Notes under the pieces: model-generated
Database searches by the model: none
The model's input: only the letters and a program-made list of their open reading frames with translations
What the model was told of the DNA's origin: nothing
Translations under genes and position numbers: made by a program
DNA from: Negaprion brevirostris
Lineage: Eukaryota
Reading direction: 5' to 3'
Length of the DNA: 64,000 nt
Assembly (NCBI GenBank): GCA_030324005.1
Contig: JARDVH010000084.1
Span: 92,718,927-92,782,926 of the forward strand
Shown here: in pieces, positions 5,211-62,257 of the stretch
How positions within the stretch are numbered: position 1 is the stretch's first letter
Layout: the number at the start of each line of letters is the position of its first letter

Positions 5211-5237
5211 TGCTTTCGCGTACAACATGCTGAGTGT
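5211..5237 (-). CDS. Candidate 27-nt phase-1 micro-exon (D-TQHVVRES)
   Basis: tctgatttttgttttcaag|ACACTCAGCATGTTGTACGCGAAAGCA|gtaagtat; paralogue-like to 17845-17871. Confidence 0.68.
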
Positions 5238-6169
5238 CTTGAAAACAAAAATCAGAAGACAAAATATAGAAGACAAAAATATTTCATTCGTTGTTTCAAG
5301 ATTTTCAAAGATGGAAAGGTGGACACCTAAAAAAGAAAATTCTGCCGTGTTCTCGGTAATCTGCCCAGTGATTGATTAGGTATTTATTGTGAGGTAATCG
5401 TCTGAATGTTGAAATATTCTCGTGCCTTCTGTGGTTCAAATTGAAATGTATTTTCATTCACATATTTTATCTGGATAAGCACAAGTAAGCTGACAATGAT
5501 AGAAACAATGCTAATATTATCCAAATCTTAAAACAGAGGGCTAGAAGAAGGAGTAAATCGTTACCCGATTTAGAAAGCAGTATTTTCAACGTATTAAACA
5601 TTGTGCGACGACAAAGCATTTCTAGTTCTGAAAGCTAATGGTTTGCATAATTAGAAAATTAACGTTTTTGTTTCACGAGTCGTTGCAATCGAGACGAATC
5701 ATGGAACGTACAATTATTTACATATCTATATAGTTCCATACATAAGTGCGAGCAATTGGCCTATTTGTATTTAATCAGCTGATAATAAATCGCTAAAGCT
5801 CCTATATCTTCCTATCGATTCTCCGTTGTGTGCAAAATAAACATATAATTTAAATGCATATATATATATATATATATCAGCCTACTGAGCCGATATTTTA
5901 TAAAAAGGGGCGTGTTAGTCAGTCATTTGAGAAAAAAATACAAACAGCACAAACAAAACTGGTACATTAACATCTCATCTTTGAGTAACCTAAACCTTTT
6001 TTTTTTATCGTCCAACTTTTGAAACAGTCACATAGCCTCTCGATGTCCGTTATGAGAATATGTCTAGCATGGTATATGTCACATTTGAACTTCAAAGTTG
6101 GATTTAGCCCGCCTATGTTCAACAAAACCGAGTTAAGNNNNNNNNNNNNNNNNNNNNNNNNNNNNNNNG

Positions 6170-6615
6170 GATTCTCTCATGACGATGAACTGAATTAACT
6201 GGGGCTATGCTCATTGTAATGCTGAAGAATGTGGAGGGATATTTTAGAAACATATAAGATTATGAAGTGATTAGATGAGATAGAACCAATGAAGTTGTTT
6301 GCACTGATACGTGAAACATGAACTAAGAGGCATGGCACAAAATAAGGGGGAGCCGATGTAGGTCTGAGATGCGTAGGAACGTATTCATCAAAAGGGTTGT
6401 GAATCTGTTAAATTCCTTGCCCAGAGAAGCAGATAAGACTAGATCACTGAATGGTTATAAGGAAAGGATAGATACATTTTGAACAGTAAATTAATTAAGT
6501 GTCATGGTGAGTGGGCGGGTAAGTGGAGCTGAGAGCATGGAATGATCAGTTATGATCCTTTGGAATGGCTGACTAGACTCGAGGGGGAAAATGGCTCCTA
6601 ATTATTATGTTCTTA
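6170..6615 (+). mobile_element. CR1/HER1 LINE 3' end
   Basis: agggttgtgaatctg...aattccttgcccag and 3' UTR ending gactcgagggg...attatgttctta. Confidence 0.85.
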
Positions 6616-6875
6616 AAACAATGGAATGTCGCCAACTAATTCTGACAGTTGGCAGTGATATTTAGATGTTGGATATCACAAATGTAATGGACAAATTAAA
6701 AAGCAGAAGTGGCTTGAAAGCTTACATCGTTGGTCATCGTAGAATAAAACTTTCTGGACGAACATTGATCAAGCCACAGCTACGCCTGTGTGTGTATATG
6801 TGCGTGTCTGTGTTTGTGTGTCCTTTTTTAATTACAGGAGATTAACTTGCATGATAATTGTCCTTAGCCTCTTAC

Positions 6876-6899
6876 CCTCCAGCTTTTCCGGAGGTATTT
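6876..6899 (-). CDS. Candidate 24-nt phase-1 micro-exon (x-IPPEKLE)
   Basis: atttatgtttccttag|AAATACCTCCGGAAAAGCTGGAGG|gtaaga. Confidence 0.68.
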
Positions 6900-7519
6900 C
6901 TAAGGAAACATAAATGCAATTGACATTCATTCCAATGCGTACACAGCAGAAATATTTTGTCAACATACTGACTTTGTCAAAATGTCCCAGTGCCTCCATA
7001 TGGACGTCTGAAAAAAAAATGTGTATACTTCCACTGATCGTTCAGGGCAATGGAAACTGAAATTAAATGGAAATGGCTGGCTCTTTCACGTTACTGTCAT
7101 ATTTATTCCTAAACCAATGTTGCTAATACGAATTAAAAAATTGGCATGCATTTAGGATCTTATATGGGAACCGCACAGTTTGCGAACAGCATTGCTCGTC
7201 AACAATTTTAGAATTTATCGAAGTGCGTTAAGTTGTGCAACTGATAGGGCGGAAATGATCATGTTCCGAATTATCCTGGATTGCTAACTGTTGAATCTGG
7301 AAGGTACCTCAAATATGTGGTGTGGAAGGCCTCATGAAAGTTCTCGAAATGACTCTGTGCCCTAATTGTCCACATGCCTTCACTGTCACTTGACAATTGT
7401 ACTGTACTCTGAAACCTGCAGTAAAACGATTTAAAAGGCTAACATAGGACGTTTTGCCAAATTATAGGAATATTTATGCTTAAGGAATTGGAAGAAATAA
7501 AACCACTTCTCGTTTCAGA

Positions 7520-8215
7520 ATACCGATTTTTAGCATCCAGACCCAGCACCGCACATGGTTCGTTGGACCCTCAGCTTCCCCATGCAATGGTCTCTCCCAA
7601 TAATACCGACCGGCGTCGAACTAACGGTAGTCGATTTCCCCCTACGTCTCCCGCAGCTGACTGGTCCAACCCACGCTTCAACTCGATCCGGCACACCCAG
7701 GGTGTCTTCCACTACGTCGGCACTCCGGAAATAGTCTTTGATCCCGAGCCAGGGGAGTGGAGCCGTCTTCATCCCTACCCACAAACATCACTACTGTCCC
7801 CTCCTCCCGAATTTTCGAGAGCGTATCAACACGTTTACAATATCACCTCTAGGAGAGGTCCAACACCCATACCATTATCCTCATTGCACCGACATGACAC
7901 CACCTATCACAAATGTATCAGGCGCACACAACCCCAACTGCAAACAGTTCAGTCGAGGCGTCCATCCCATCGTGCTCCTGGACATATGACCGGAAATGCT
8001 CTTTGGGCAGACAAACCAACGCCATATGGAGCAGCACCTCCAAACAAAGCCAAAGTCTCATCCACCCCATTCCCATCATCCCCCCAACGCCCCCTCCACA
8101 CACCAAGAGCAACCATCCCTCAGAGTCAAACGGCCAATTCCCTCCGCTTTCCTGGATGCTTGCCTTACACCTGGCCTGCCAATCTCACTGGACGCCATTA
8201 ACACAAGAAGATTCC
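7520..8215 (-). mobile_element. Probable decayed L1/Tx1-type LINE ORF2 fragment
   Basis: C-rich plus strand; minus peptides TAPLPWLG...DVVEDTL and VCLPKEHFR recall the post-RT region of shark L1/Tx1 elements (from memory, not aligned). Confidence 0.45.
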
Positions 8216-8859
8216 AGGTACTTATTGCAGCAATTGCATGCAGATAGCCTTCCCGTGTGAGTTTTGGTTGAGTAGGGCTGTGGCATGTTGTATTTCATTT
8301 TTGGGGCGCCAAGAATCTCCCGCCAGTGGGGTTTTGAAGAAAGTTTTCAAGACATTTAAGTGCGCTCTATTTTCATTTAATTGCAACAGACAACTACTTC
8401 GCCTCACTGAGTGGGATCTGCTACCTGCCCTTTTTCTTAATAAAAGAAGGAATGAATCATGCAGTTTGTCCTTCGGTTATGCATGTTGTTGGCATGGAAC
8501 ATTCAAAATGCCATTGGAAAGAAAATGGAAGGTTTTAATCGTTGCGTTAGTAATGTACACCATATTTTGACGAGGATAAACTTCTTCTGGGCAGCTATGC
8601 CACCTATTTAATGGCTGCCAATAGTGTGGGATATTAGGTTCATTTCCTGTTGAATATTTTCTCTCTCTATTTAGACGGTTACTATACATAATCCCAATGC
8701 ATTTTCTGATCGCTTTTGTTCATTTCACGTCGCGCTGGTATTCTCCGACAGGCGTCCATTTAACGAACCAAAGAATGATAACTGGTTCCAGAGTCATAGA
8801 CAGGCGTGTAATCGCTGCCTCTCCTGAAGCTGCAGAGGGCGTGCCTAAGACAACAACAA

Positions 8860-9040
8860 TCCACTGCCATAGAAACCAGTTGAGGCCAATATCACTACCT
8901 CTTGAGGCGAAGAAAACCATTTTTTTTGTGTGTGAAGTCTGGAGTGAGCTATTGCGTTGCATGATCAGCCATGATGATAATGAATGGTGGTACATATTCA
9001 AAAGGTCGAATAACCTGCTTCTACCACCATGTTCTTAATT
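8860..9040 (+). mobile_element. CR1 3' end fragment
   Basis: gatcagccatgatgataatgaatggtgg...ggtcgaataacctgcttct...atgttctta terminus. Confidence 0.75.
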
Positions 9041-9487
9041 TCCATTTTCCCACCTCAGAGCAATGTACATGTTCCATTCTTTATTATGTGGAATCTTTAT
9101 GACAATATAGCCCAGTGATATATCAAATCAAATGCCACATTCTGCAAGATCCATTCATGTGTTCTCGGCTTTCAAGGCTTTGGTCATATTGCTTCAATGC
9201 ATTCAGGGTTCAAATTCAGCCATTTTATTCACCTTAGTGTTTGAAATTACCAACAAAGTATGGTTTCCTTCAATCCACTTATCATGCCGGACACATTGTA
9301 ACGCGACATATTCATCTGGATGTCTTCAAATGTCCATTGTGTAAAACATTGACAGCAGTTATGGTGATAGGAGTTGTCCCAAAATGCTGATGCTTAACGC
9401 GACAAATGTCGAAAGGGGACTCCTTGTATAGTCGTGCATGTTTCGGGGCCAAAGGGAAAATAATGAAACAAACAAAAAACTTCTTAC

Positions 9488-9511
9488 GTCTCTTTCTTAA
9501 TTCGGACAGTT
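9488..9511 (-). CDS. Candidate 24-nt phase-1 micro-exon (E-LSELRKR)
   Basis: ttgctccttctctttacag|AACTGTCCGAATTAAGAAAGAGAC|gtaaga; phase 0 closed by TAA; heptad-like peptide. Confidence 0.72.
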
Positions 9512-12239
9512 CTGTAAAGAGAAGGAGCAATTGCAGGTAATTAATTGCAATAGCAACATTAAACAAAATTAAGACTGTGATTGTTTGGTACGACAAAGTT
9601 TAGAACAGCTTTTCCATAAATTAGCGTCAATTTTCTTAATGCCTGAATTAAAAAGAGAGGACACGTTTTCCAGTGAATAAACTTTGGGAATCCGTTGTGT
9701 CATTTTGCCACTTCAACATGGTGTTAATCATTTAGAACGTAGTTGCAGTTCACTCAGTAATTGGTAATCGGCACTGTAACCGTTTACCCATAATTAGGCA
9801 AGTACGGCTAAGGATAATTAATATTTCCCATGTCAGCATTGTAATGGAGTTGCAAGTTATCAACCTATTAAAATATTTCCGCAATCATGACACATTGTTG
9901 TCATTGAAGGACATAGCCAATTGCCCATGGTTCAAGATGCGACAGAGGCATGAAAACCATTCTTTCAAAGCAAAAGAAACATGCAATTACTAAATATTCT
10001 CTCAGGGTATTTCGGGCATCTAAAAGCCGGGAGGTTGGTTGGACAAGAGTTGTTACTGCTGCAACCAAATTTCTCGTTCGGTATTTTATTGTCATGGTAC
10101 ATAACTAATGACTAATGCTTTATGTCTACAANNNNNNNNNNNNNNNNNNNNNNNNNNNNNNNNNNNNNNNNNNNNNNNNNNNNNNNNNNNNNNNNNNNNN
10201 NNNNNNNNNNNNNNNNNNNNNNNNNNNNNNNNNNNNNNNNNNNNNNNNNNNNNNNNNNNNNNNNNNNNNNNNNNNNNNNNNNNNNNNNNNNNNNNNNNNN
10301 NNNNNNNNNNNNNNNNNNNNNNNNNNNNNNNNNNNNNNNNNNNNNNNNNNNNNNNNNNNNNNNNNNNNNNNNNNNNNNNNNNNNNNNNNNNNNNNNNNNN
10401 NNNNNNNNNNNNNNNNNNNNNNNNNNNNNNNNNNNNNNNNNNNNNNNNNNNNNNNNNNNNNNNNNNNNNNNNNNNNNNNNNNNNNNNNNNNNNNNNNNNN
10501 NNNNNNNNNNNNNNNNNNNNNNNNNNNNNNNNNNNNNNNNNNNNNNNNNNNNNNNNNNNNNNNNNNNNNNNNNNNNNNNNNNNNNNNNNNNNNNNNNNNN
10601 NNNNNNNNNNNNNNNNNNNNNNNNNNNNNNNNNNNNNNNNNNNNNNNNNNNNNNNNNNNNNNNNNNNNNNNNNNNNNNNNNNNNNNNNNNNNNNNNNNNN
10701 NNNNNNNNNNNNNNNNNNNNNNNNNNNNNNNNNNNNNNNNNNNNNNNNNNNNNNNNNNNNNNNNNNNNNNNNNNNNNNNNNNNNNNNNNNNNNNNNNNNN
10801 NNNNNNNNNNNNNNNNNNNNNNNNNNNNNNNNNNNNNNNNNNNNNNNNNNNNNNNNNNNNNNNNNNNNNNNNNNNNNNNNNNNNNNNNNNNNNNNNNNNN
10901 NNNNNNNNNNNNNNNNNNNNNNNNNNNNNNNNNNNNNNNNNNNNNNNNNNNNNNNNNNNNNNNNNNNNNNNNNNNNNNNNNNNNNNNNNNNNNNNNNNNN
11001 NNNNNNNNNNNNNNNNNNNNNNNNNNNNNNNNNNNNNNNNNNNNNNNNNNNNNNNNNNNNNNNNNNNNNNNNNNNNNNNNNNNNNNNNNCGGACATTATA
11101 GCTGATGTGTGGTGACTAAACAAATGTGTGGGAATAGGAAGGAAGGGTCATTAGCAACGGCATTTAATCTAGGCGCTTGTCAGTGTCAGCAGAGTTCTCA
11201 TGTATTTGGGTGGACAGTGTATTTCCTGAAATGGAGGTGGAAATTCAAGTGCAGGAAGCTAATGAAAGGGATGCAAAAGCAAAGTTAACGAAACTTTTGT
11301 GATTCAGATGAAATTTATTTATTATTTCTATGTCCCACAAAGGGAACAATGTGATGATGCACCAGACACCGACCAATCTGGAATATTAAAAAAAATATAT
11401 AACTAGCACCAGAGCCAAGAATATTTCGCATAAAATACAAGGAAGGCATAATATCAGGTTTCACTTTAATTAAAAATCTATTTTCAGCATGTAAGGCAAG
11501 GTAAATGAGTAACCGCTAAATGAGGAAATAATTTCGTCTAGTCGGATGAGGGAGGCAACGCTGGATGAACATTGATATGGCTCGTTCCAATAATTAACTG
11601 GATGACTCATAGACTGCACTGGTGACACGTGGAGCAGGTCAGGTTGTGCATAATGAAAAAAAAAGATGCAGCTCAGGTATCCCTTCCTTGCCACTAATTC
11701 CTGTAAATCTGAAGAAAGAAATCGGATTTAAATATTTATTTCCTCGCAACGCATGACATCGTGATATTAATTCCGAAGAACTTGGCGCATAACTTCAGTA
11801 GGACATGACGATTTGAAAAAAAAACACAATAATTTTTCATACCGATGACATGGAAACTGTAGAAGCGAGCTGTATGGAGTTGGACGTTTACACGTTCTTA
11901 CCCAGAGACAGTGAACTCTATTCTACATGTTTTTTTTTCATAAAGGGCAAGTATATGTATTGTTAATATGTTTAATGCAGCATGGACGCCTTTTCTACCA
12001 TTAACGCTTTCAGTCTTTTTTTTCCCCCTGACAGGTATTACTGATTCGTCCTTCAAACATCATCTATTCTAGACTCGAACGTTTGTCCTTAATGTCATTA
12101 CCATGCCACATGTTTGGTGTTCACGGCATCATTGCATTTAATGTTGTCTTTCCGATAATTTACCCTAAATTTATGTCTTGTTTTAAATTTGTCCTCTCTA
12201 TTCAAATATAAATACATATCTTCCTTCAGTCCTGGGAAA

Positions 12240-12812
12240 TAGACGCTGCCGACTTGCCAGCAATTATTGCCCGTCCCCAGTTGCAAGGGTAGTTCAGAAT
12301 TAACCACATTTTCTGTGGCTCTGGACTCGCATGTTGGCCACACCGGGTAAGGATGGCAGAAGGATCTAGATAGGCTGGGCGAATGGGCCAGGAACTGGCA
12401 AATGGAATTTAATNNNNNNNNNNNNNNNNNNNNNNNNNNNNNNNNNNNNNNNNNNNNNNNNNNNNNNNNNNNNNNNNNNNNNNNNNNNNNNNNNNNNNNN
12501 NNNNNNNNNNNNNCCATGATCTTATTGAATGGCGGGGCAGGCTCGAAGGGCTGGATGGCCTACTCCTGCTCCTATTTCTTAGGTTCTTATTTAATTCCCT
12601 AAAGGACAATAGTGAATCAAGTGTGTTTTTTTTTGTTTTGACAATCGACAGTATGTTCGTGATCATCAGTAGATTCTCAATTCCAGATTTATTTTCTTGA
12701 ATTCAAATTCCAACATCTGCCATGCCGGGATTTGAACCTAAGTCCGCAGAGCATTATCTGAGCTTCTGGATCAATAGTCTAGGGATAATACTAGGAGGGC
12801 ATCGCCCCCTCC
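12240..12812 (-). mobile_element. Second tRNA-head SINE family (SacSINE1/DeuSINE-like, tentative), split by a CR1 insertion
   Basis: accacattttctgtggctctggactc...gggtaaggatggcaga continues after the insert as ttccctaaaggaca...gggatttgaacc (B-box, reverse). Confidence 0.65.
12360..12592 (+). mobile_element. Young CR1 fragment spanning an N gap
   Basis: DLDRLGEWARNWQMEFN before the gap; intact 3' UTR (gaatggcggggcaggctcgaagggc...cctactcctgctcctatttctta) after it. Confidence 0.88.
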
Positions 12813-13291
12813 ACCATAACCTAACAAATTCCCATTTTCGTTCCGAAGAAGTCATTTGTCAGTTGAAAGATTAAACTGCTGCTTTGTCTCCAGATTGTTT
12901 TCCCAAATTTGCTGAGTTTTGGTCGAAATTCTTGTTTTCAATTCAGATCACGCCTTTCTTAGTATGTGCGTTCTCTTTTTAATATGTAATAGCCTCATTA
13001 CAGCTGACAAATTGGAATTAAAATGTGGTCTGTCAGTCTGTTGAGCTGTTCAGTCACATTGTAACAATTTGTAGCTGCTTTTTTTTTTGCGCTCTGAGTT
13101 TGTTGGTTCACAATTAGCCCTATCCTGTTGGCAATAGGCATTTGTTACAAGGGCCGTGAACTCTATGTCTGCTTAATGTCTGCAAGCTTACACTGAGATC
13201 ATTCCACTCAATTAATCAATATCTTAAGGTAACCCCGGCAATACATTGTAATAACAAAATTAAATAGAACACAACTTTAGAGTTTGTTTAC

Positions 13292-13318
13292 CTGCACCTT
13301 TGTCAAGTAACTGTTTCA
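13292..13318 (-). CDS. Candidate 27-nt phase-1 micro-exon (x-KQLLDKGA)
   Basis: gcattcggattacag|TGAAACAGTTACTTGACAAAGGTGCAG|gtaaac; shares the QLLxK motif with 17845-17871. Confidence 0.55.
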
Positions 13319-13656
13319 CTGTAATCCGAATGCATATTTGATCTTGTCAACAAAACGTAATATGCAAGAAATGAAGGTCATAAAGCTGAGTAACTATCTA
13401 CTGAATAATTTTGAATTATAACAATTCGAAGCCCACTCAGAGTAAATCTCAGAAACAGCTTTTGCATAAATTTCCAGTTAAATACGTCTTTTAATAAAGC
13501 ATATTTCAGAACTTAGTTTGAGGTCCATGTTAGATTGTTAGTGAAGACAAGGTATTTCAGTATGTAAAAGAANNNNNNNNNNNNNNNNNNNNNNNNNNNN
13601 NNNNNNNNNNNNNNNNNNNNNNNNNNNNNNNNNNNNNNNNNNNNNNNNNNNNNNNN

Positions 13657-13920
13657 GGCCCATTGAGTTTGTGACATACACAAGCCCACCTCGGCCCTAT
13701 TCCCACAACACCACGCATTCATCTTGCTTACTCTCCCTGACAGTATCCAGCCAAGCTGTGCATGTTTGGACTTTGGGAATAAGCGGAGCAACCGGAGGTG
13801 AGCCCCACAGACACGGATAGAACGTGCAAACTCCACAAAGGCAATGACCGAGGACGGAATTGAACTGAGGTTCCGAGCGCTGTAAGCAAGCCGCGATAAC
13901 CATCGTGCCACAATGCCACG
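13657..13920 (-). mobile_element. HE1-type SINE
   Basis: tttggactttggga...aacgtgcaaactccaca...ggaattgaac motifs. Confidence 0.75.
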
Positions 13921-17255: not shown

Positions 17256-17323
<68 letters not shown>

Positions 17324-17844: not shown

Positions 17845-17871
17845 TGCTCTTTTTCAGAAGCTGCTGGCAGT
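17845..17871 (-). CDS. Candidate 27-nt phase-1 micro-exon (D-CQQLLKKS)
   Basis: caaactttttttag|ACTGCCAGCAGCTTCTGAAAAAGAGCA|gtaagtat; phase 0 closed by TGA; same AGCA|gtaagtat end as 5211-5237. Confidence 0.7.
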
Positions 17872-19306: not shown

Positions 19307-19339
19307 CTGCGTATCTTGTTGCTAGGGTGGCACAATCCG
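19307..19339 (-). CDS. Candidate 33-nt phase-1 micro-exon (A-DCATLATRYA)
   Basis: gttatttcctttaaaacag|CGGATTGTGCCACCCTAGCAACAAGATACGCAG|gtaagt; consensus donor; phase 0 is closed by TAG. Confidence 0.68.
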
Positions 19340-23120: not shown

Positions 23121-23129
23121 ATTATTTTT

Positions 23130-27689: not shown

Positions 27690-27707
27690 CTTTCCGTGGT
27701 CTGAGAT
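27690..27707 (-). CDS. Candidate 18-nt phase-1 micro-exon (D-LRPRK)
   Basis: attatttctcatag|ATCTCAGACCACGGAAAG|gtaaga. Confidence 0.55.
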
Positions 27708-31337: not shown

Positions 31338-31361
31338 CTGGCTTCTGGCTTGAAATGCTGC
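31338..31361 (-). CDS. Candidate 24-nt phase-1 micro-exon (G-SISSQKP); read-through gives ...PGSTVISVYDDGVL*
   Basis: cttttatgttcattttcag|GCAGCATTTCAAGCCAGAAGCCAG|gtagca; strong acceptor, moderate donor. Confidence 0.5.
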
Positions 31362-41544: not shown

Positions 41545-41580
41545 CTATCAGTGGAATGGAAGATCTCAAAGTTTCCAGTT
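41545..41580 (-). CDS. Candidate 36-nt phase-1 micro-exon (x-LETLRSSIPLI)
   Basis: actctctcctacag|AACTGGAAACTTTGAGATCTTCCATTCCACTGATAG|gtaaga; strong acceptor and donor. Confidence 0.72.
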
Positions 41581-45160: not shown

Positions 45161-46059
45161 CGATCCTTTTTTTTCTTTCTTTTTTTAACAGGTTTTCCTT
45201 AACGACTTTGTGTGTGATTTTTCGAAAAGAATTCTAAGCGCCGAATTCGCGTTAAAACTGGAATACATTCTACTCTTTTTCTTCAGCGGGATCTCTCCAN
45301 NNNNNNNNNNNNNNNNNNNNNNNNNNNNNNNNNNNNNNNNNNNNNNNNNNNTAGGGACGACTTCTGCTGAAGAGGACAGCTGCATCGCTCTGACCATGTG
45401 ACAGTCTGTCAGCGCCAAGTTAGGCGCTTGGACGGTAGCCCACACTGTGGTGTCTCGACTGCTGGCCATCTAATTCACCGTGAACGCGCTTTGCTGCAAG
45501 TGCAAACACCACAGGACCCAATTGGTGGTCTTCAGGACGTTTCCAGGCCTGCCAGGACTCCCTTCCCCCACAGATTGAATCTCGTCCTTCCCAGTCCCGA
45601 TATCCAAGTTGCGCCACCCAACAAACATCTCCCGATCTGCTCCGCCCCGCCCTCAACCCCTGAACTCCCATTGACAGACACGACTCCTACCCCGCAGTCC
45701 CAACCCTCCCTTGCAAGCCAGGGACAAATAATGGTATGGTAATAATCAATGTCATGATTTCTTCAGCTCTGCGCTAGTGTATGGTGTGGAACTGACAGTG
45801 TCGGAGGTTTGGTGCTTGGAAACACGCAGAGGCCATGGCTAGAAACCTCCATTTAAGTGTCCCGATCCGCTGCATTGCTTGAGGTGTGAGAATCAGCCCG
45901 TTTAAAAAAAAATCATTTCGATCCAGGCGCTGATCATTGGAGGCATTGAAAGATATGTGCTTGGTTCTCTCCCTTTTCAGAACCTGTTTGGTTTTAGTAT
46001 GTCAAATAATAAAAACGCATTTGAAATCAAGATGTCGCCTTGTGCCTGAAGGCAAGCGC

Positions 46060-49261: not shown

Positions 49262-49288
49262 TATCAGCTTGACACTTTCCGTCCAATT
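49262..49288 (-). CDS. Candidate 27-nt phase-1 micro-exon (E-LDGKCQAD)
   Basis: gttctttatttag|AATTGGACGGAAAGTGTCAAGCTGATA|gtgagt; 198-nt intron from the preceding exon. Confidence 0.68.
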
Positions 49289-49486: not shown

Positions 49487-49513
49487 CTTCTTCCTTTTGA
49501 CGTAACTTTTCTT
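49487..49513 (-). CDS. Candidate 27-nt phase-1 micro-exon (E-EKLRQKEE)
   Basis: gatcttcttcccag|AAGAAAAGTTACGTCAAAAGGAAGAAG|gtgaaa; purine-rich, coiled-coil-type peptide. Confidence 0.72.
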
Positions 49514-50340: not shown

Positions 50341-50845
50341 ATTTCAGGTGAAAACTCAACTTGTTGTTTTGTTAATTAATGGGCTTTGAAAAGATCCACA
50401 CAGCACTTCAGATAATCTAAAGCACATCGTACTATTAAGCACAATTGGCCATCTTGCATCCAATAAAGTCGCAACGCCCCGGAAGAATTGAACCTGAATA
50501 GAATTGTAATGAACACAATTATTATGACAAAAGTACGTGGAATGTAAACATGCATTGAATTACTTTTTGAATCGAAAATTCAAAAAAAAATACAAAATAA
50601 CATGGATCGGCAGAGTATTCTTTCAGAATTAGTAATGTAAATCTGTGACATCATTTGTCAAAATTTACGGGAAATACTGGTCAGCTTTGGAAGCTACATT
50701 ACTTGTTTGCAGAGTCCAAAATACAACGAGCACAAGTGGAAAACAGAAAATTTAATCAATTAAAACATCATATTTCAATGTAGGCTGGAATAGTTTGCTT
50801 TTATTATTTCCTTACAAAATGGTCGGGAAAATATGTTTTCCTCAC

Positions 50846-50881
50846 CAGCGTTGGTTAGCGCAGTTTTCAACGACTTAATTT
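50846..50881 (-). CDS. Candidate 36-nt phase-1 micro-exon (x-IKSLKTALTNA)
   Basis: ctatcttcccactag|AAATTAAGTCGTTGAAAACTGCGCTAACCAACGCTG|gtgagg; amphipathic helix pattern; same size and pattern as 41545-41580. Confidence 0.7.
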
Positions 50882-51756
50882 CTAGTGGGAAGATAGAACA
50901 CTTGTGAATATTGTTCCACTGATTTACTTCCTTAGCGCAGTTCGCTGCTTGTTTTCTTTCGCAGCTCATTCGGCATTTCGATTGAAATTAGTAGCATCTA
51001 ACAAACGAGAAAGATGTAATCAGCAAGACACGCGTTTCTATTTGCAATTATGCATCAACGTTTCTTCATTTGACTGACTATACCTTGTGTCAAACAAACC
51101 GAAACATTGTTGCCTTAATTCGAACATGAAACCAAATATCATCTTTGAACCTGGTTTATTGGACTAATTGCAGGACGGAGAAGGAGTCTTATGACGACTC
51201 ATAATCACCCAGGGTGGTTTGACCAATAATCACATAAGGCCCCAACATTTTGCGCAACCACAATCAAGATGTTGCTGGCATTGCGAAAGAAGTTTTCCAT
51301 AGGTCATTACTATGCAATCAGAAAAAAAAACAACAGTTGGATTATTTCGACAATCTATGGTCGGGTAGCAGATGAAGAACCTGACAAAAATGCCGGGAGT
51401 GAAGTCAAAGATTTCATTTGACATGACCATTATTTTATTTCACGGAGCATTTTTGGTCGTGAAAAAAAAAATGCATATTAGTTTCCAAGTAGGAGGAGAG
51501 CTGAACCAAATATTCGATCATATAGAGCACGTTTCCCAGCTTCTCAGTGTGTTTTTTTTTTCAACGTTACGTTCAATTCGGTTAAGTACAGAAAGTCTTT
51601 TTTTCTATCTGAACTGCAAGGATTATTGGGGCTAAGGTGACATTTTCTCTCTGCTTGAGACCAAATCCCTCATCCATACATTACTTTACTGGGGCATTTA
51701 ATGACAACACCCTTCTACACCACAACTCATTGTTCTTCCAAATATACTATCCTTAC

Positions 51757-51867
51757 TTCTGCAAATTGATTCTATGCACTCCCATCCTCCAGGTGGTATC
51801 ACGACAACGGACAATATCAACGGTGACGTTGATCCACTTGATGAGTCGTCCGGCAGTTCCTGAAGTT
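51757..51867 (-). CDS. Candidate 111-nt phase-1 exon (ELQELPDDSSSGSTSPLILSVVVIPPGGWECIESICR)
   Basis: tatttcctcatgcatccaccag|AACTTCAGGAA...TGCAGAA|gtaagg; 3n length, open in the same phase as its neighbours; lies in ORF 51698..51898(-). Confidence 0.4.
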
Positions 51868-54235
51868 CTGGTGGATGCATGAGGAAATACAATCTCATTT
51901 ATTTTCTCTCTCTACTGCATGCAGCATGTTATAACCAAATGAAACGCCGTTTTATTTTTCTTTATTGTGAACACATTTTATCAGAATAAGCAACAGCATT
52001 TTTCAAGTATTCCACAGATTGGAGAAAAAAAAAACATTGTTATTAACTCTGCGATTGGAAAAGTTCAATAATTTAGTTGAATAGTTTAGCCTCAAACGTA
52101 ACATGCATGTGAATCTTGAAACGATGCAAAACACATAAGCACAAAGCAAACCGTAAAATAAACGAACACTCTCAGAGATGGATTTTTTTTTTTTATCAAG
52201 CAGTGTTTTTCCTTTAGGCTATGAATATCATAGTATCTAGAGTATACATAGAAAATATAATGTGGAATATGGAACAATTGAAAAAAAGTAACATTCGCCA
52301 CTATATTCACATTTCGAAATTGGACGTCAGAACAGTGGTTCATTCTGCCGTGCAATGGGCGGGACGACGCCGCGAATGTGAGGTCATTGTTTTTTTTTCA
52401 AAGTCTACTATATGTCACTTGAATTTTATCCTTATGTCTGCATACGATGAAGAAATCAAAAATAACCTAACGTCACTGGAGAGGAGGAAAAGTAATAGAC
52501 CAGAGATTCAAATCTGTTCAATGTTATTCGAGCCCACATGAACTCAGGTACTCAGGGAGCTGTACTTTGATAGAGTCTATGCATTATCCAACGTTGAAAC
52601 AATTAGGTTAATATGATAGAAAAGACGAATGAAAATGTATCACGCGCAACAGCGGCACAAATGCCCTGCTATCCGAATGACTGTATCAATATCTGAACAT
52701 GTGCGTCAGGATTCATAGGACTTCCGGACCAGGAGGACAACTTGATAACTCAAAAGAAAAAAAAAATGATGAGAAGCTCCCTGTTTTCGGTGAATGCCGT
52801 TGACAATGCAAAACAGTTCGCAATTTGCATAGGCCTGTAGAAAATACCAGGGAAATTTCGAGGGATTACACTTAGCCCCAAAATTGGTTAAAGAGGCAAC
52901 TGGCTCACAGCCAAAACATCCACTGAACCATTAACTGTAACTGAGCATTACTGCACACGCTCCACGAGCGGGGTCCATGAATAAACTCTCCATAATAACA
53001 GCTTATGCACTCAACAATTTGACGATATTTTCTACCTTCCAATTATCCAACGAATCCAAGCGACTACCGGTAGCCATGACTGAGCTACCACGCCTTCCGC
53101 ACCTAGGAATAATTCAAGTGCCCAGAATCTTTCTGGCTAGACTACCAAAACCTACAACACTTGTTTTTACTCGCGCCAACACTGACACATCTTAACATAA
53201 ATCGGTAGCAACTTTCACACTAGTACATATTTCCTTTAAAATTCCCCCTGACTCGTTTGCCCTCCAACATTGCACAGAATCAAAATCCAGCTCCACGGCT
53301 ACCGTACACCCAAAAACATCGCCACTCCTGATCAAACACGCAACGAATGTTCAACCATTCTATCCGCTCAATTCCCTTCAGTCGTCGATCAAACCAACGC
53401 CCTCACGATATTTATTCCACCCACCATCCTAACCCATTATCAGTCACAGTCTCCCGAAATATGTCGGCTTCCATGATCTCTCGCCTCCCGATTGAAGCGA
53501 ACCATGTAATTAATTGACATTCACCACCAGACAAATCATCACCAAAATTCCAGTAACATTCGATCACAAGTCTATACCAGATCGGATCACAAACTTGCAC
53601 ACATCACGCCTAACACTGGATCACTCAATTACCCTCGCGCTCGGACAAAAACAGCTCCCCGCAACTAACAACAAACCTTAATTTACTAGTTCAATAGCGC
53701 AGTACGTTACTAACTCAATAACACCCGCCTGATTATGCCTAAGTGTCCAAGTGTCCATTACTTCAGCCCCAGCTATGTTTATTTCAATTCTCCTTAAAAC
53801 CATGTCACCTAGTTGAATAGACCACCCACGTGACCACGTCAAGCGCATGCCCAGTCATTGCCGAGCAGTAATCTAAACCTCACCCAGCTAACCCCGTGTC
53901 AAGTCCATACCTCTTTCATATACCAACTTCGGGTGACAAAACGTGCTCAAAGCCAGTTGCTCGATCAACAGCCACCTCGTCCATAAGCCAAATGAGAGAT
54001 CTCCTAGCAGGAGAAACCTACCCCTACACATCAGCAAACATACTCAACCTTGTGATTCTGAGCAACCAACCAAATCCACCTTTTAAAGCCTCATGCCCAC
54101 TAACGAGTCATTTATATTCCTTGACGCTGATAGACCACTTACAACTAGCAAAACAGATCTGCCATAAACTCATTCAGCACGTACCCATCTCATAAAATTA
54201 GCCATCTATCTGGTTCTATATGTTATCCATTCCAA

Positions 54236-54243
54236 CGCACACC

Positions 54244-54322
<79 letters not shown>

Positions 54323-54490
54323 NNNNNNNNNNNNNNNNNNNNNNNNNNNNNNNNNNNNNNNNNNNNNNNNNNNNNNNNNNNNNNNNNNNNNNNNNNNNNN
54401 NNNNNNNNNNNNNNNNNNNNNNACACACTCCTCTCTCTCTCTCTCACACACTCTCACACACACACACACACACACACACAGAGACACACA
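54236..54490. repeat. (CA)n / (CT)n compound microsatellite with internal gap
   Basis: Directly visible. Confidence 0.98.
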
Positions 54491-55290
54491 GGTTCAGCCT
54501 GTCGCCCGTGAAAACTTATGTCTACCACAATAATCAGCGCATCATTTGACATTCAGGTTTATCAGTCTACAGCAGGAAGGGCGCTTTCCCTTCCACTGAC
54601 TAGAAGGCACGACTGAGCAATTCCCTGTTGAGACTGCCTTTTGCATTTCTTAGGCTGTCGGGAGCACAAAATCATGGCAGAAAAGGGCTGCAGTTTCAGT
54701 TTTGGCCAACGAAGTCACAAAGTATCTTTGTGTACAGCCTTGCCACAATCTCAGACGGTATAAGGGTGTATGGCATTAAACATAAAATAATCTTTAGCAG
54801 GGTTCCTGATATTCTGACAATTTATTTGCGATTGCTTTTCTGTAGCTCAGTGGACATGGATTCGACAACGTAAGACTTTCACTTCAGCCAGAAGTACATT
54901 TAGGATAACACTGTCACTGTGTGTGGTCATTGCCGAAAGATTGCGGCTTTGTTATTTGCATGAGTGAAGATCGACGTGAGAGGCTGGTGAACTCCCTTGT
55001 GAAAATAGTAAATTTGCATCAATGCCGTCATAGTGCAACTAAATGCGTTTTTTCTTTTGCAGGGTATTGAGCAACTGGAGCTATCGTAATTTCCATAGCT
55101 TCTAGGAAACTACACAAATATATTTTCCCGCTTTTATGTGAACTGCAAATAAGTATTGAAACTTAACATATAGTTTTAGTCTTTTTATTCCGGTTGTGAT
55201 ATAATTAGAACTCATCCGATCCTTTCGATGTCCTATTCGTAAAATATTAAAAACTCCTGTTACGCAGACAACGACAAAAACCGTCCTCAC

Positions 55291-55317
55291 CCTTCATGTT
55301 TGCTTGAAGCTTGGCCT
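55291..55317 (-). CDS. Candidate 27-nt phase-1 micro-exon (E-AKLQANMK)
   Basis: aatattttaag|AGGCCAAGCTTCAAGCAAACATGAAGG|gtgagg; peptide resembles the 49487-49513 exon (E-x-K-L). Confidence 0.6.
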
Positions 55318-56199
55318 CTTAAAATATTTTTAAAAATCAAAATTAACTTGGATGCAAATTAACATGAATGTCGTTCGTGTTTGTTTGAAGTAGAAAGAGT
55401 CAGGTATAGCTGAGTATAGCAGAAAGGAATCAGTGTCCTTGAAGAGAAAAATGTTCGGGCTTCAATGGTACATAGATCTAATTTCCCCAGAAAAAAAAAA
55501 ATGTCTGGCAAGCTTACAGTTTGGCGAAAAGTCAATTTTTCATGTTGCAAAAAAGAATAACATAAATGTTTAAATAATGCAATGCTGTCAATGATATTCA
55601 ATTTGTTGATTTTCAAATTGTACAATTAAACATTATCAGATTGCAATTGCTCTAGAAATTAATGCAACAATACAATTTTGGTGTGTGCAAAAATGTTTAG
55701 AAGAACATTACAAATTTCAGATGGTTCTCTAATAGCGTCGATTTAGCACATATTGCTATAATGTAAGCAGCAAATTATTTAAATAACGTTATATACTGCA
55801 AACCAGACAGAAATAACAAGAGGTGCTCACTTGCTGAAAAGAAAGATGCATTCCAGGTGCTGTTTCTCAAACCATCGTCAGGACACACGGATTCCAGGTT
55901 TCAAAATATAACAGCAGAGCTTGTTGGTAGGTGGGCTCTAATTGTCCTAGGCTTTACCATGGAGTCAGGAATGAGGATGGATATCGTTAACTAAAAGCAA
56001 ATATGCAAGGCTTGAACGTATTCCATTTGCATGATATCAATATTTGAACCTTCTGCTGTATATAAAGCTTCCCATGAACACTTATATGCGATCCATCCTT
56101 GGATGAAATTCATGGTTGAAATGAGCAGCCCTTGGTCGGCTGTCGCTAAAACTATCCACAGATAGGTTTAATTCTACTCTATTCAACAAAAAAAAGTAC

Positions 56200-56220
56200 C
56201 TTCTCTGGTCATCGGCGTGC
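56200..56220 (-). CDS. Candidate 21-nt phase-1 micro-exon (x-TPMTRE)
   Basis: gttcaccaatag|GCACGCCGATGACCAGAGAAG|gtactt; weak pyrimidine tract and moderate donor. Confidence 0.3.
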
Positions 56221-57584
56221 CTATTGGTGAACTCAATCACAATATTGCCGATAGATCCGGAGACAGTTCCCGATCTTGTAAGATTAACACTAAAACTATG
56301 ACATGTCCTAGTTGCTCTGCCCGATATTGGCCATCGCCGTCACATCACTGTGTCCTCAATTAAAGAATGAACATAAGATCTTCACCACAGTCATGGAAAT
56401 TGTGAAACAAATCTTAAATTAGTCTGACAAGCGAGGCATTTCGTTGCTGCAAGGAACAGTTGAAGCGAAACACTTCCTTGTTGCTAGCTATACAAGGTTT
56501 ATTTCCGCTATTAGAATGCTGCTGACAAGGTAAGCGGACGGGAGAAATGATCTGTTTTCAGAAATGGTTCCTATTTGTTTTAAGAGCTCATCCGTTGCTA
56601 TGATGGTAATGCAATTGGAATATTTGAGGAGACTGCAGGTTTTTTTTCTGTATTTTGTGCAGACATACACATTTAATTAATAAAATCCACTGTTTAATTT
56701 GAACATATGTGTATAAACTGATTCATTGTTTTCAATGTTGAAACCTCCAAACGTAACATATTCAGGACATTACAAGCTACCACATTACATGGGCAAGGTG
56801 TGCAACGATCCGAGACCAGATCCCTGGCTCGTTGGTAAGATTAGGCGTTTGACAAATACGATTTGCTTAAGAGAGACAAAGCAAAACAAAACTCCAAAGA
56901 GTTGCACAGGGAACAAAGTTATAGGGTTCCATGTCCATGAACATAGGAAAAAATAACTTCTTAACGTGAACTCAAGTGAATTATAATCACTCTCTTGTGT
57001 GAAAACGAGCATGGCAAGGTATGTGTGCAAGTATATGAAAGAAAAAAAACAAACGATTCAGACAGAAGAAGGTATAAGGTATGTGTTCCTGGGATTTCGA
57101 AACACAAGGGCGCACAATCGGTGCAGAGAGGACAGAGTTGCGTTTTTAGTTTGTCTTCGTACGATGGTATAGCCCATTTGGAGATACGTAGGCTACAAGG
57201 AGAGAGCGGATTTGGAAGAAGTGGTATGCTGTTTGCCTTCAATTCAAATAATGATAACAGCTCCAGATCTTCTAAATAATCCAGTAAATCAGTAGCTGCC
57301 ACAAATTTAAAGTGACAGTGTTTTGACGCGAGCGCTCAGTCCAGTGTTTTACACATTCACTGCCATTGGTATTACCCCATTCACACAATTTGTCATTCTT
57401 GTAGCCACAGGAGTTCCGGGATTCGGCGTTTCAACATCGGCTGTAGGCACAGCGAGATTGTCCTGTGTCCCATATTTCTGATAAGGTTATGTTCAGCTTA
57501 CGGAAATGCAATCAAAAATTGAGTTAGTGGCTACCAGTCGGAATGCGGCAGACTTGTGTTCAGGAATGCTACATTGCTCCTTAC

Positions 57585-57599
57585 ACAACATATTTTCTT
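57585..57599 (-). CDS. Candidate 15-nt phase-1 micro-exon (x-ENML)
   Basis: ccttttgttttccgaaacag|AAGAAAATATGTTGT|gtaagg. It ends in T, so it would create a stop if joined to AA/AG-starting exons; weaker candidate. Confidence 0.35.
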
Positions 57600-58449
57600 C
57601 TGTTTCGGAAAACAAAAGGAAAGACCCTTCCTCTGGGTCGTGCACCCCGAGGCAAGTTCATGGAATTCGAGGTGGCTCAACTTCTGGGGAACGAAGAGTG
57701 AGAGTGAATTAACAATACATCTAGGGGGTCGATTGTGAGCGTTGAACAGTAGCGCATCTGCAGAACCCAGCGTGAATCCAGGATGTTGCGTTTCCTCCCT
57801 GGTGCCAATAACAATGAGCACATGTGCAGGACGATCTGAGGGGGTCAGATTAAAAAAAAAATCAAAGTCGAATTTCACATTAATTACGTCGACATACGCA
57901 ATAAGGACGTGTGATGTTTTGCTGTAGAATTTAGGGAGCTAGATTGCAGGATGAAACGTAGGACTTCAAATGTTGTAATCTCTGGGTCGCTAATGTTGCN
58001 NNNNNNNNNNNNNNNNNNNNNNNNNNNNNNNNNNNNNNNNNNNNNNNNNNNTGGACCGGATAATAGTGCGGTTCAAGAGATGATGCATGATTGAATTACA
58101 TGGATCAATGATACCTTCCTGGGGATGTTGAAACCTGTAATCTCGAATGTGTTGCATCGAGACTAATGTGGAAACAACAGACTTGCCGGGAAATTTGTGA
58201 GTGATTTTGGGCGTATGCGTGAATTTGCCTGCATGTATCTGGAACAGGGATGTGTCACAGTGTGGATATGACGTCAAGGCAATGCACAGCAAAATATATC
58301 GGAAAAAAAAACAACTCCGTCTGGAAGGCAGTGTGAAGAGTGACACACTNNNNNNNNNNNNNNNNNNNNNNNNNNNNNNNNNNNNNNNNNNNNNNNNNNN
58401 NNNNNNNNNNNNNNNNNNNNNNNNNNNNNNNNNNNNNNNNNNNNNNNNN

Positions 58450-58670
58450 AAAATCACTCGAAGGGTAGTGACAATCCGGAATTCATTTCCTCACAGAGTA
58501 ATGGAGGCGAAGCGCCTCACCATATTTAAGAATCGTTTAGATAAGCGCATGAAACGCCTTGGTATACAAGTTTACGGAACATGTATTGGAGAATGGAACC
58601 ATTAAAGATAGGTTTTTGATCATTCGAACGGACATGATGGCCCAAGGGCCTCTTTCTGTGCTGTGAAACG
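58450..58670 (+). mobile_element. CR1 3' end
   Basis: TRRVVTIRNSFP...IFKNRLDKRM and tail gggcctctttctgtgctgt. Confidence 0.8.
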
Positions 58671-60224
58671 TTATGCACGTATGTAAGTAAGATATGGCTT
58701 TAAAATAGCAGGTGGCCTGTGGTCGACCACATCACCCTGCACAATTAACGAAGGTATGTCTCAAGAGAGAGTGCACAGATTTCTAGTAGAGCTGCCCAGG
58801 CGTCTGTCACAATCCATATTCAAAGTGTTACACTTTAAAAAAATGTCTTTCAAAGCAATTATTCCATTGTTCATTTCTCAAGGTCCTTTCTTGCAATTGT
58901 CTGTGAAAATAAACATTCCCCAACTCATTGGCTTCGATATCAGTTCTCCTGAATTACGAAGCACACAGTGAAGATCCAATTCCCCACGCCCACCCGCCTC
59001 CCCACTCAAAGAAAAGATCCTCGGGTCTTCGGCCGCACCTAGCTGAGTACCATCATTTCAAAGCAATAACTTTGGTTCAATGCCCACTGCACAGAGTCAT
59101 CAATTTCTCAGTGATTCTTGGATTATCAGAGCAGCACTTAGCATTTTTAAAATAACCAGAAGTGCACGGAATCAACAGTTGTGCAACGGGTCAATTTTCA
59201 ATCACGCCTCCCAAGCCTCTATTTCCCCAAGCTCTCAAAGAAGAAAGAAGGAGTACAGTTACAATTTCGTGTGACGCAGATGAGAAACTATTTCACCAAT
59301 TGGATTGCTTCTCACCAGCGGTCAGCAGTTAAGAAACATCAACTTTAGCCTGCCTTTACACAGTGATTTTCTTCGTTGCAGCACGTTTCTCTGCTGCTCA
59401 AATGTAAGTTCAAATGTGTAATTTGCCGGCCGTTTATCCACGCTATGAGCCCAATTTTGGGACTAATCACTAGGTTTTCACCTGCATGAAACAACTACCT
59501 ACGCTGACGTTCCGTGCTCAATCGACAGATTTTGTGCTTCACCGCATTTCCTGAGAAAAGTGAACTGCTTCGAATGTAGGGTAAAAAATGCCGACGTGCG
59601 CAAGTGCAGTTGGTTCCCAATCTAAGCTCGAGCAAATCCACCGAGCCCTTACAGTGCTGGAATCCAACACTCTCCTCTCTCCAACTGTTTCCTTTGTTTT
59701 GCATTACANNNNNNNNNNTTTCAGTGCAGTTGAGATTTCATATATGTAAACCGAAAAATCAGTCATTGGCGGATCGTATTAAATCGCAGACCCCTTGTCT
59801 GTTTGCGATGACCATTTAAAGCCATCCCACAGGTGCAAAATTCGGATTTTTTCGATGATTAGATGAGATTCTATGATGGAACAAATGATTTAGTATTGCC
59901 ACATTCACAATGTGGCTCACTTAGGTTTACTAGGACTTGTATAGATTCAGACAGAACTGCGCAGAAAAGCGATACAAAATATGACGGGAACGGCAAGGAC
60001 TTGAACTAAAGGGAAACATGGTAATAGCCCCCTTTGCATTTCCGTTGGCCATCGCTCGACGTGTCAGAATCGACTGTCTATCCGCCATCACACTTTCTTA
60101 TCTGACCCGTTTGTTTTGTTTTGTTCAATTTGGCATATTGTATGTCGTGAGAATTCCCAGAGGGGAAACTCGAACAACATGTGTTTTATCTTTCTGTATT
60201 CTCACGCTTTGAACTCCAGTATGG

Positions 60225-60600
60225 AGGGGAGCCAGTGGAGAAATGGTATTGTCACTCTATGCTCTGTGGACCCATGTATGAACTTCAACATGGCAAGTAG
60301 TGAAACTTTAATTCAATATCAATTTGGCTTTTAAAAAAATCTAAACATGACCGAGTTTGCTCAATTGTTTTAAAACCAATCTTGAACACCAACTTTCTTC
60401 AGTGAAGTCAATCGATCATCCTTACCTCATCGAGCACCTCCATCAAGCGCAGAAGATCCACTTTACGAGCATGAACAACTCGATGGAATTGTTCGTTCTT
60501 GTAGCAATACGCGAACTTGGGATTATTCAGCAACTGCGACCCACTTGCCTAATAATATTTAACAGCGGACATCTCCCTTTTCTGCCCGCATGTGCGGACC
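60225..60600 (+). mobile_element. Old tRNA-head SINE (same family as 12240-12812)
   Basis: gtggagaaatggtattgtcact...aacatggcaagtagtgaaac...catccttacc. Confidence 0.5.
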
Positions 60601-62233
60601 AGTTCAATGAGGTCAGTGATTTCCGTACTCCGCAAAAAAAAACGATGATAACGTGATTTTTGATTTCATCAACTAATCTTTTGGACGTATATTTGACTCA
60701 ATCAAACAGCGTACTGCTTCCATTGTTAGCAGTGGGCGAAACTCGATTTGTTTTTTTTTAATCAGCCAACCTTTTCAAAACTAAAACAAAATAATATGCA
60801 TCATGTTCAAGCCTTTATCGTTAAAAAATGCACAGAAACTTGCAGAACCGATTTTTTTCCGCACACAATATCGTAGATAATCGGTGTTGTCTTGCCAAAT
60901 AATCAGTTTTTTTTTTATTGTTCCTCGTATATTATTGTTATAGGTTGAAATACTGGATTTCTGCGTTGGACCTGATGAATGAATAGAAAGTGATTTGGAA
61001 TGATATTTCATTTTTCAGCAATCTTCACCTTGTGGACGATAAATTTTCTGAAAATCATTTTCTACCTAAAATTTTACTATTCCTTTGCAGTTCTGAAAAT
61101 AAAGAAACGGATGAATATATTCGATTTCCTATGTAATTTAACTTCGATTGTTAAGCGGGAAATGTGAAGTACAGGGAAATAGTCGCCAGTAGATTATTTA
61201 AAGTAACATTTTTAGACTTAACATTTATTACTCATGCATCAATAAATCTATTTGTATTCATGTGGTGCCCATTGTGCAAATCAGAGGTGAAATGTGGAAG
61301 CCTTCACCTCACTGAGCACGGGCATTCATTTAAGTTTGTTTATACATGTACACACGAGAGAAAACATCTATTTATTTTTCAAACGGGGAGAATCAATTTG
61401 ATGACAATTGGGTGTTGGGAATCATAAATGTCGCAACTGACCTGTCCATTACACAGAACTGATTCAATGCTGTATACTTACGCAACATAAGGTTATGTGT
61501 ATACATTTCAGTGAACGTCCGTACATATATCAATAACGCTTGAGTTCCACCTTCATGGATCTTTCCACAACATTTGCTGATTGTCAAAAATCGGAATTAA
61601 AATTAATTTACTTAACGGGATCCAAAAGCAAAAATATTTACGGTCCTCCTTTTTATGAGACGGTTGATTTTGGAATTTAAAATCAATAGTGAGAATTAAT
61701 TTCCCTGTCAATTTTCGGGGTTATATCAACTTTAGCCTGCCTCCTGAATCAGAATTTAATTTCTTCTTATTTTGTATCTTTTTAAGTGTTAGGTTTGTTG
61801 GCATATCCAAACGCAATTCTTCTTGTAGCGATTTTTCTTCTGTTCTCTCATAAATAATTAATTCACTCATGGGCCCTATTTCATGTTGGTGAAGATAGGT
61901 TACTTATATTCAACTATCTATAACGAAGGAATCTAAAGAAATAATACCTCATTGAATGTATACTAATATTTATTTTAAAAACATTGGCAAATTCAAATCA
62001 AGACTTTGGTCTGGGACGACGACTACTTATTTATCTTGGAACTGTTTCAACCTTTAAATCGTGTCGGGGGAAGGACTAGAGATCGATGTTGAGTATATGG
62101 AACTGTTAATATCCTTCTCATGAAAAATCACGATAATCCCCTTTGCAGCAAAAAGGAAAGTGAATAATATTTTATCGAAATCGGTAATAGTTCGTGAGCA
62201 TAACTGCAACTTACTCTTTTGAGGGAAGATTAC

Positions 62234-62257
62234 CTTTAAAATGTATAACGTTTTCCA
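62234..62257 (-). CDS. Candidate 24-nt phase-1 micro-exon (x-ENVIHFK)
   Basis: Minus strand reads ctattttgttttaccacag|TGGAAAACGTTATACATTTTAAAG|gtaatc: pyrimidine tract, CAG acceptor, AAG|GTAAT donor, 3n length, open in phase 1. Confidence 0.6.

Follow-up and report, generated by a model that had tools for sequence, protein, structure and literature searches.

Long coiled-coil tails encoded by many short exons have been described for the chicken BG genes, which show linkage with the major histocompatibility complex (MHC); they build these tails from 13-36 exons of 21 or 24 nucleotides (nt), with isoforms arising via splicing or read-through (PMC4046983, PMC8813856). A zipper protein derived from BG is described as acting in actin-myosin control, and butyrophilins (BTN/BTNL) are given only a few heptads in the same account (PMC4046983). 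The B30.2 domain that closes butyrophilins also occurs in TRIM proteins, where it binds ligand (PMC8813856). Here, we examine a locus of related design in the shark Negaprion brevirostris (genome 2.69 Gb). The window, a stretch of 64,000 nt on contig JARDVH010000084.1 (C84, positions 92,718,927-92,782,926), had been predicted from its letters alone to hide a minus-strand gene of 17 micro-exons over 57 kb, all symmetric, in phase 1 and encoding a coiled-coil-like chain.

The window lies wholly inside a much larger micro-exon tract on the minus strand, spanning 2.21 Mb (C84 ~91.196-93.406 Mb). The exon pattern of this tract, its extent, its helical periodicity, its single B30.2 exon and its homology to shark and ray proteins are direct observations. 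We estimate a probability of roughly one half (0.52) that the window is the middle slice of a 2.2-Mb same-strand phase-1 micro-exon run in the shark MHC region which likely forms one giant gene, with a few hundred candidate exons, mostly of 27 or 36 bases, encoding a coiled-coil rod of several thousand residues and a single B30.2 domain.

We read 1.63 Mb of the tract, of which ~10% is N, including a continuous stretch that measures 1.39 Mb and runs, relative to the window, from -700 kb to +690 kb, and like candidates extend beyond the window on both sides. Splice sites were scored with approximate vertebrate weight matrices, not with MaxEntScan. On splice scores alone, the continuous stretch yields 240 candidates with a length divisible by three (3n) and 137 without on the minus strand, compared to 98 and 172 on the plus strand (Fisher 4e-12). 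The unbiased scan called for by the original prediction thus reveals a tract-wide minus-strand enrichment and not equal numbers of pseudo-exons. Candidates of 27 or 36 nt number 132 (79 + 53) on the minus strand versus 8 (0 + 8) on the plus strand, while open candidates of these lengths are absent from both strands in 78 kb outside the locus. Of the 199 minus-strand 3n candidates measuring 24 nt or more, phase 1 is open in 174, against 92 for phase 0 and 122 for phase 2.

When the splice score is combined with a residue-composition term trained on relatives, 207 minus-strand candidates (2,043 residues), seven of them in the window, reach a score of 8 versus 19 on the plus strand, and 342 versus 107 reach a score of 4. 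At the higher cut, 153 of the 207 exons measure 27 or 36 nt and five measure 21 nt, the first base is A in 155 and the last is G in 187. Joining successive exons creates a stop at one of 206 junctions, and 405 of 42,849 ordered pairs do so. Hydrophobic residues of tract exons recur with a period that peaks at 3.5-3.6, bearing out the predicted coiled coil, and in the 36-nt exons a hydrophobic residue stands at position 1 in 94%, at position 4 in 92% and at position 8 in 79% of cases (an a-d-a pattern). The widest gaps between score-8 exons in the continuous stretch are 48 and 35 kb. Extrapolated over 2.21 Mb, the net density would correspond to ~330-410 exons and 3,300-4,000 residues. The composition of the tract varies along its length. 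Around -405,000 to -522,000 relative to the window (L091-L100, L121-L123), ~15 similar minus-strand 27-nt candidates rich in Asp, Met and Arg break up the rod, and between +500,000 and +660,000 (L074-L080, L101-L110), the 36-nt exons of the 5' part of the tract, also on the minus strand, often bear Cys.

Relatives were found in catsharks, in basking, whale and epaulette sharks, in an electric ray and in the elephant shark. Family models comprise Scyliorhinus canicula XP_038671249 and XP_038672306-310, S. torazame XP_072329362, Narcine bancroftii XP_069775384-428, Hemiscyllium XP_060706632 and Callorhinchus XP_042191566-568. RefSeq labels them 'zinc-binding protein A33-like', 'TRIM39-like' or 'golgin A6-like', automatic names that are misleading; neither RING nor B-box was found in the two catshark proteins scanned. 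The models have 101-945 residues and each covers parts of the tract only, none of those found being orthologous to the window exons. The catshark protein XP_038671249 (945 residues) can be placed collinearly on the final 240 kb of the tract, and by homology the 3' end of the tract is its orthologue, rod and B30.2 included. Micro-exon candidates run unbroken past the first Met of this catshark model, and the S. torazame model, 87% identical to it, lacks both ends, from which it follows that the database models are fragments.

Splicing of exons of this kind is best supported by an intron-free protein of 586 residues, albeit from another species and for another part of the tract. This protein, taken from Logan contigs, scores 803 when chained onto 37 exons between +414 and +209 kb, where 24 of 36 junctions abut; 15 controls, shuffled or reversed, score at most 300. 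Through the window, chaining scores 460 with the catshark rod and 477 with the ray rod (controls at most 284 and 228), suggesting that the window block is a paralogue of both. Because shuffled rods score up to 300, we gave no weight to chains below ~320. Isoforms of relatives in RefSeq, whose models usually rest on RNA-seq, differ by 6, 8, 9, 11, 12 or 23 residues in single blocks. The many in-frame isoforms foreseen by the original prediction are possible by design and, in relatives, annotated. A splice-tuned heptad ruler was considered and found unsupported, since these isoform differences keep the frame and not the heptad register.

The tract is delimited by two B30.2 exons 2.26 Mb apart. 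The terminal one (C84:91,195,602-91,196,119, minus strand; L141:6676-7193) lies 1.52 Mb downstream of the window and is 62% identical to catshark XP_038671249, which has SPRY as its only domain. The other (C84:93,460,998-93,461,515, L118; +742 kb; Pfam SPRY E 1e-11) marks the 5' limit and belongs to a separate upstream paralogue, a compact gene of ~66 kb orthologous to catshark XP_038672306-310 at 66% identity. A 56-kb gap follows this paralogue and the tract starts near +686 kb. No B30.2 match was found between 91.196 and 93.461 Mb (150 of 156 genome candidates scored), nor, with 131 of 131 candidates scored, a near copy on any unplaced contig. A search near the window for a B30.2 or Ig exon gave none within 500 kb on either side, and the first upstream B30.2 exon was rejected as the end of the window gene because it closes a different gene. 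The scale originally envisaged, 57 kb with a B30.2 exon possibly just before base 1, was therefore ~40-fold too small, the nearest downstream B30.2 exon being 1.52 Mb away.

A tree of 41 B30.2 domains (midpoint root) unites 13 rows, six from this genome and seven from relatives, in one clade with 100/100 support that excludes 26 rows bearing RING or Ig as well as two further long-rod proteins. The other rows are unnamed proteins chosen by pattern, and the tree leaves out the genome's own TRIM and BTN domains as well as two copies on C121. Both marks of a cartilaginous-fish rod + B30.2 family are present at the locus, namely ordered homologous rod modules and a same-strand downstream B30.2 exon of this clade. 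Together with the tract scan and the catshark homology, the clade bears out the core of the original prediction: a cartilaginous-fish gene of symmetric phase-1 micro-exons, coiled-coil in product, invisible to open reading frame finders and linked to B30.2. Among solved structures in PDB, the B30.2 domain is nearest to BTN3A1 (E 2e-14) and TRIM21. The setting is that of the MHC, with class I exons at C84:81-88 Mb and a B30.2 cluster at C84 85-101 Mb. The catshark family models are located on a sequence of 163,470,629 bases, and catshark MHC class II beta genes are placed on chromosome 13, of ~163 Mb (PMC9992475). A second chromosome (C121 6.2-11.0 Mb, L161-L176) carries six further B30.2 exons that rank close to the family in searches. 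Five of these loci were sampled; two display a clear micro-exon bias (13 vs 3 and 14 vs 6) and three contain few candidates.

The original prediction likened the architecture of the gene to that of butyrophilin and BG antigen tails, and a membrane protein of this type is not supported. We searched with tblastn using 150 B30.2-bearing proteins, 44 with a RING pattern and 12 with an IgV pattern, domains being confirmed for 25 of the 150. In 1.66 Mb, the matches consisted of the two B30.2 exons and repeats only; no Ig, RING or B-box exon was detected with these mostly distant queries, which included V-set and C2 domains but no shark Ig as positive control. None was found around the upstream paralogue by tblastn, nor in the models of relatives, and a V-set search of the genome placed none in the tract (150 of 927 candidates scored). 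A scan of 664 kb for hydrophobic runs, with the 5' end read by eye, gave nothing convincing for a signal or transmembrane exon. The evidence for absence is good but, as gaps remain in the sequence, not final. With no Ig, RING or B-box exon found in 1.66 Mb, the gene does not fit the definitions of butyrophilin, BG or TRIM genes.

Chicken BG and the zipper protein share with the tract MHC linkage and a long coiled coil from many tiny exons, but BG combines IgV with a transmembrane segment and lacks B30.2, whereas the tract has mainly 27- and 36-nt exons, ~10 times more of them, spread over megabases and with a B30.2 exon; neither the IgV-transmembrane part nor a B30.2-less tail of 21-nt exons was found here. 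Butyrophilins resemble the tract as a whole in the succession of heptad micro-exons and a terminal B30.2 exon, and differ in their IgV-IgC-transmembrane part, which was not found. TRIM-B30.2 proteins such as TRIM21 and TRIM39 share with the proposed product a soluble coiled coil plus B30.2, and the locus sits in a B30.2 cluster; unlike the tract, they have RING and B-box, which were not found here, and TRIM coiled coils are short and come from larger exons. Unnamed chordate proteins with a long rod and PRY/SPRY (P0138, 2,294 residues; Atlas clusters of 1,277-1,802 residues) have the same layout, rod then B30.2. P0138 differs in a signal-peptide-like start (judged by eye), falls outside the B30.2 clade and gives no chain to the tract above controls. 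Schistosome micro-exon genes are similar in their short exons and long introns but are described as encoding small secreted flatworm proteins (10.1101/2023.06.21.545858), and no homology to them is expected. No description of a shark family of this type was found in the open-access literature, to which the search was confined, subscription journals lying outside it. BG and butyrophilin genes already show its ingredients, and RefSeq contains fragments of the family.

In the window itself, all 17 segments claimed were located on the minus strand from 62,257 to 5,211, with the lengths and order given and with AG before and GT after each. Joined, they form 528 nt without a stop in phase 1, whereas phase 0 has 14 stops and phase 2 has 6; nine of the 17 are closed individually in phase 0, where the claim had been "several". 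With 80-nt flanks, none has a second blastn match in 1.66 Mb, and thus none sits in a local repeat. The concern that exons picked by eye are biased proved partly real, as only seven of 17 pass thresholds of 2 for both acceptor and donor; the decisive control is that of the 1.39-Mb tract. At these thresholds, an unbiased scan of the window gives 15 3n and 5 non-3n candidates on the minus strand versus 4 and 11 on the plus strand (Fisher 0.006). A looser cut gives 19/9 versus 10/13 (Fisher 0.07) and a stricter one leaves too few, so that strand enrichment within the window alone reaches significance at a single cut out of three. Eight of the 15 minus-strand 3n candidates are not among the segments originally chosen, and three of these eight are closed in phase 1.

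Nine of the 16 short exons are similar to rods of relatives or to other tract exons at p<=0.05 when set against 55-105 length-matched pseudo-exons from the plus strand, six of the 16 matching relatives at this level. Beyond these nine, three have strong sites or a high combined score and one fits by order, whereas the 15-, 21-, 18- and 111-nt segments are unsupported. Judged on sequence, about 12 of the 17 exons are well supported and four weak. Extra window candidates at 45,493, 42,811, 35,716, 24,660, 4,787 and 34 were rejected, having no family similarity and in two cases touching repeats. No RNA run was listed as matching; the single data set that does match contains 90% of the words, most of them intronic, is probably of genomic origin and was rejected as RNA support. 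The long open frames of the window are mostly runs of N or pieces that we take to be repeat-like; decayed pieces on the minus strand at 1-4,800 are presumably derived from a CR1-like long interspersed element.

We consider one giant gene slightly more likely than its most serious competitor, a row of tandem genes of 200-400 kb in which the window gene would be rod-only and just the last would keep B30.2, like the B30.2-less tails of chicken BG. This tandem arrangement, to which we give substantial but minority weight, draws on most of the observations that speak against a single gene. Several 200-250 kb blocks of the tract each resemble the whole catshark rod, as tandem genes would; the same 586 residues of the Logan protein stand on two contigs of different length and ray models end without B30.2, which fits finite rod-only products; and the upstream paralogue shows that a compact 66-kb gene exists in the family. 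No clear rod exon appears in five of 14 spaced 10-kb samples (L153, L154, L155, L157 and L160), the exon-poor ones at 91.58-91.69 Mb pointing to a possible break near 91.55-91.72 Mb. Also to be counted against a single gene are 0.58 Mb of unread tract and the ~10% N of the part read, the failure to recognise a start exon, an SLC5A5-like transporter exon inside a tract intron beside the start of the catshark model, and the fact that window exons are matched by paralogous modules only and by no transcript of their own. Opposing a row of genes, neither gap nor start or stop exon separates the blocks in 1.39 Mb, exons continue through the start of the catshark model, and the ends of database models look, from their composition, like intron read-through. 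One gene is preferred because of the single B30.2 exon, the lack of a long gap, the exons running through the catshark start and the fragmentary nature of the models.

The remaining alternatives concern the product and the state of the window. A true membrane protein of butyrophilin or BG type, with signal, Ig and transmembrane exons hidden in assembly gaps or unread parts, would suit the MHC location, the resemblance of the B30.2 domain to BTN3A1 and TRIM21, the 10% N of the read sequence and the heptad micro-exon tails that are a described BG and butyrophilin trait (PMC4046983, PMC8813856). We think it improbable, given the lack of any Ig match with 150 queries in 1.66 Mb that include the 56-kb gap at the 5' end, the lack of Ig in relatives' models or around the bounded upstream paralogue, and the separation of the B30.2 clade from Ig-bearing rows. 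It is similarly unlikely that the window block is a decaying copy within the locus that is no longer spliced. Its exons do look more divergent than average, with seven candidates at a combined score of 8 and a weak splice site in 10 of 17, yet all 17 are open in phase 1 while nine are closed in phase 0, and their module order matches relatives above controls. Chance AG..GT pairs chosen by eye would explain why the window-only enrichment is non-significant at two of three cuts and why four segments are unsupported; this reading is already refuted for the tract by its bias in strand, length and phase, by protein homology and by the absence of such candidates from 78 kb outside the locus, and for the window we regard it as very improbable.

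The tendency of the tract exons to start with A and end with G would make junction codons usually Glu or Asp, so that almost any skip would remain open. A 36-nt and a 27-nt exon together would add 21 residues and keep the heptad register. Growth may have proceeded by duplication of exon blocks together with their introns. The product would be a soluble, RING-less, oligomerising rod holding B30.2 domains at its tip, in the manner of butyrophilin and chicken BG tails but minus the membrane anchor. It would serve as an adaptor or tether, by analogy with the ligand-binding B30.2 of TRIM proteins and with the BG-derived zipper protein. A bolder version, which we put forward tentatively and at less than even odds, is a single 2.2-Mb MHC-linked gene with at least ~400 micro-exons and a B30.2-tipped rod of 4,000 residues that free exon skipping makes longer or shorter; it would exceed all other members of an undescribed family that dates back at least to the split of sharks and chimaeras, lie in a CpG-retaining domain and perhaps preserve a soluble ancestor of butyrophilin and BG tails. 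Its span of 2.2 Mb would match dystrophin, and ~400 or more exons would exceed titin's number. Some 2 Mb within the MHC region of this shark, seemingly empty to gene finders and named only in fragments, and wrongly, by database models, are packed with likely coding micro-exons. As one gene, the tract would rank among the largest known and offer a natural test of splicing hundreds of micro-exons. Whether one gene or many, a B30.2 family in which no RING or Ig was found bears on the origins of TRIM, butyrophilin and BG genes in the MHC.

The individual window exons, all on the minus strand, differ in strength. The chain opens with a 24-nt phase-1 candidate at 62234..62257 with strong sites (acceptor 5.8, donor 2.9), p=0.07 against relatives and a place in the ray-protein chain. 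A possible additional 27-nt exon overlooked earlier lies at 61066..61092 (acceptor 6.9, donor -0.5, combined 7.1; p=0.12). Weak candidates of 15 nt (57585..57599; acceptor 2.3, donor 0.3) and 21 nt (56200..56220; acceptor -2.1, donor 1.5), neither with family similarity, are followed by a 27-nt candidate (55291..55317) with a poor acceptor (-5.5) and a good donor (5.2) that resembles 27-nt tract exons at p=0.05. The 111-nt Ser/Pro-rich candidate at 51757..51867 (acceptor 3.1, donor 3.4) is atypical and uncertain, far above the usual length of tract exons; an alternative 30-nt form, with a weak donor, is possible. Three rod modules come next, one of 36 nt at 50846..50881 (p=0.05 against relatives, 0.02 against the tract) and two of 27 nt, at 49487..49513 (p=0.02), where a tandem acceptor would give a 24-nt form, and at 49262..49288 (p=0.02), matched by ray and catshark modules.

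Further along lie a 36-nt module at 41545..41580 (p=0.02 against the tract), a 24-nt linker-type exon at 31338..31361 (acceptor 7.4; p=0.03 against the tract) and an 18-nt candidate at 27690..27707 with acceptor -0.7, a strong donor (6.6) and no family similarity. The 33-nt exon at 19307..19339 has a very strong donor (8.8) and a combined score of 9.1, above the cut of 8. A 27-nt Cys-bearing family module (17845..17871; p=0.04 for relatives, 0.02 for the tract) precedes a 27-nt module (13292..13318; p=0.04 and 0.02) of the type that follows it in relatives. The last three are a 24-nt rod module at 9488..9511 (acceptor 8.1; p=0.01), a 24-nt exon with strong sites at 6876..6899 (acceptor 4.2, donor 4.7; combined score 10.1) and a 27-nt exon at 5211..5237 (acceptor 3.8, donor 2.3), which by order would occupy the place of the Cys-type module of relatives; the next candidate lies 3.6 kb before base 1 of the window. 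Tandem acceptors three bases apart occur in several 27-nt exons (49,487-49,513 in the window; 76,729 and 94,956, window-relative, outside it), making one-residue variants possible.

A CpG-rich domain of 2.3 Mb (C84 ~91.21-93.52 Mb), window included, is coextensive with the family genes. The ratio of observed to expected CpG is mostly 0.5-0.85 across this domain. Within the continuous tract, each of the 136 10-kb bins with sequence for half or more of its length gives 0.48-0.84; just outside the domain, where the terminal B30.2 exon lies and directly above the upstream paralogue, values sink to 0.2-0.4. In the lower tract, a single sampled bin (L155) has 0.36, and the ratio is high too at four of the five C121 loci. 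Germline hypomethylation is a likely cause. As the domain spans the 56-kb gap too, it leaves the gene count undecided, and CpG islands are uninformative as promoter markers because the whole tract is CpG-rich.

The SLC5A5-like exon in the tract is a lone minus-strand exon of 206 nt (L150:9237-9442, C84 ~91.438 Mb) resembling the sodium/iodide symporter (PDB E 6e-9). A whole SLC5A gene nested in the tract was rejected, as no SSF-domain exon occurs there. A 79% copy of this exon lies on contig C22183.

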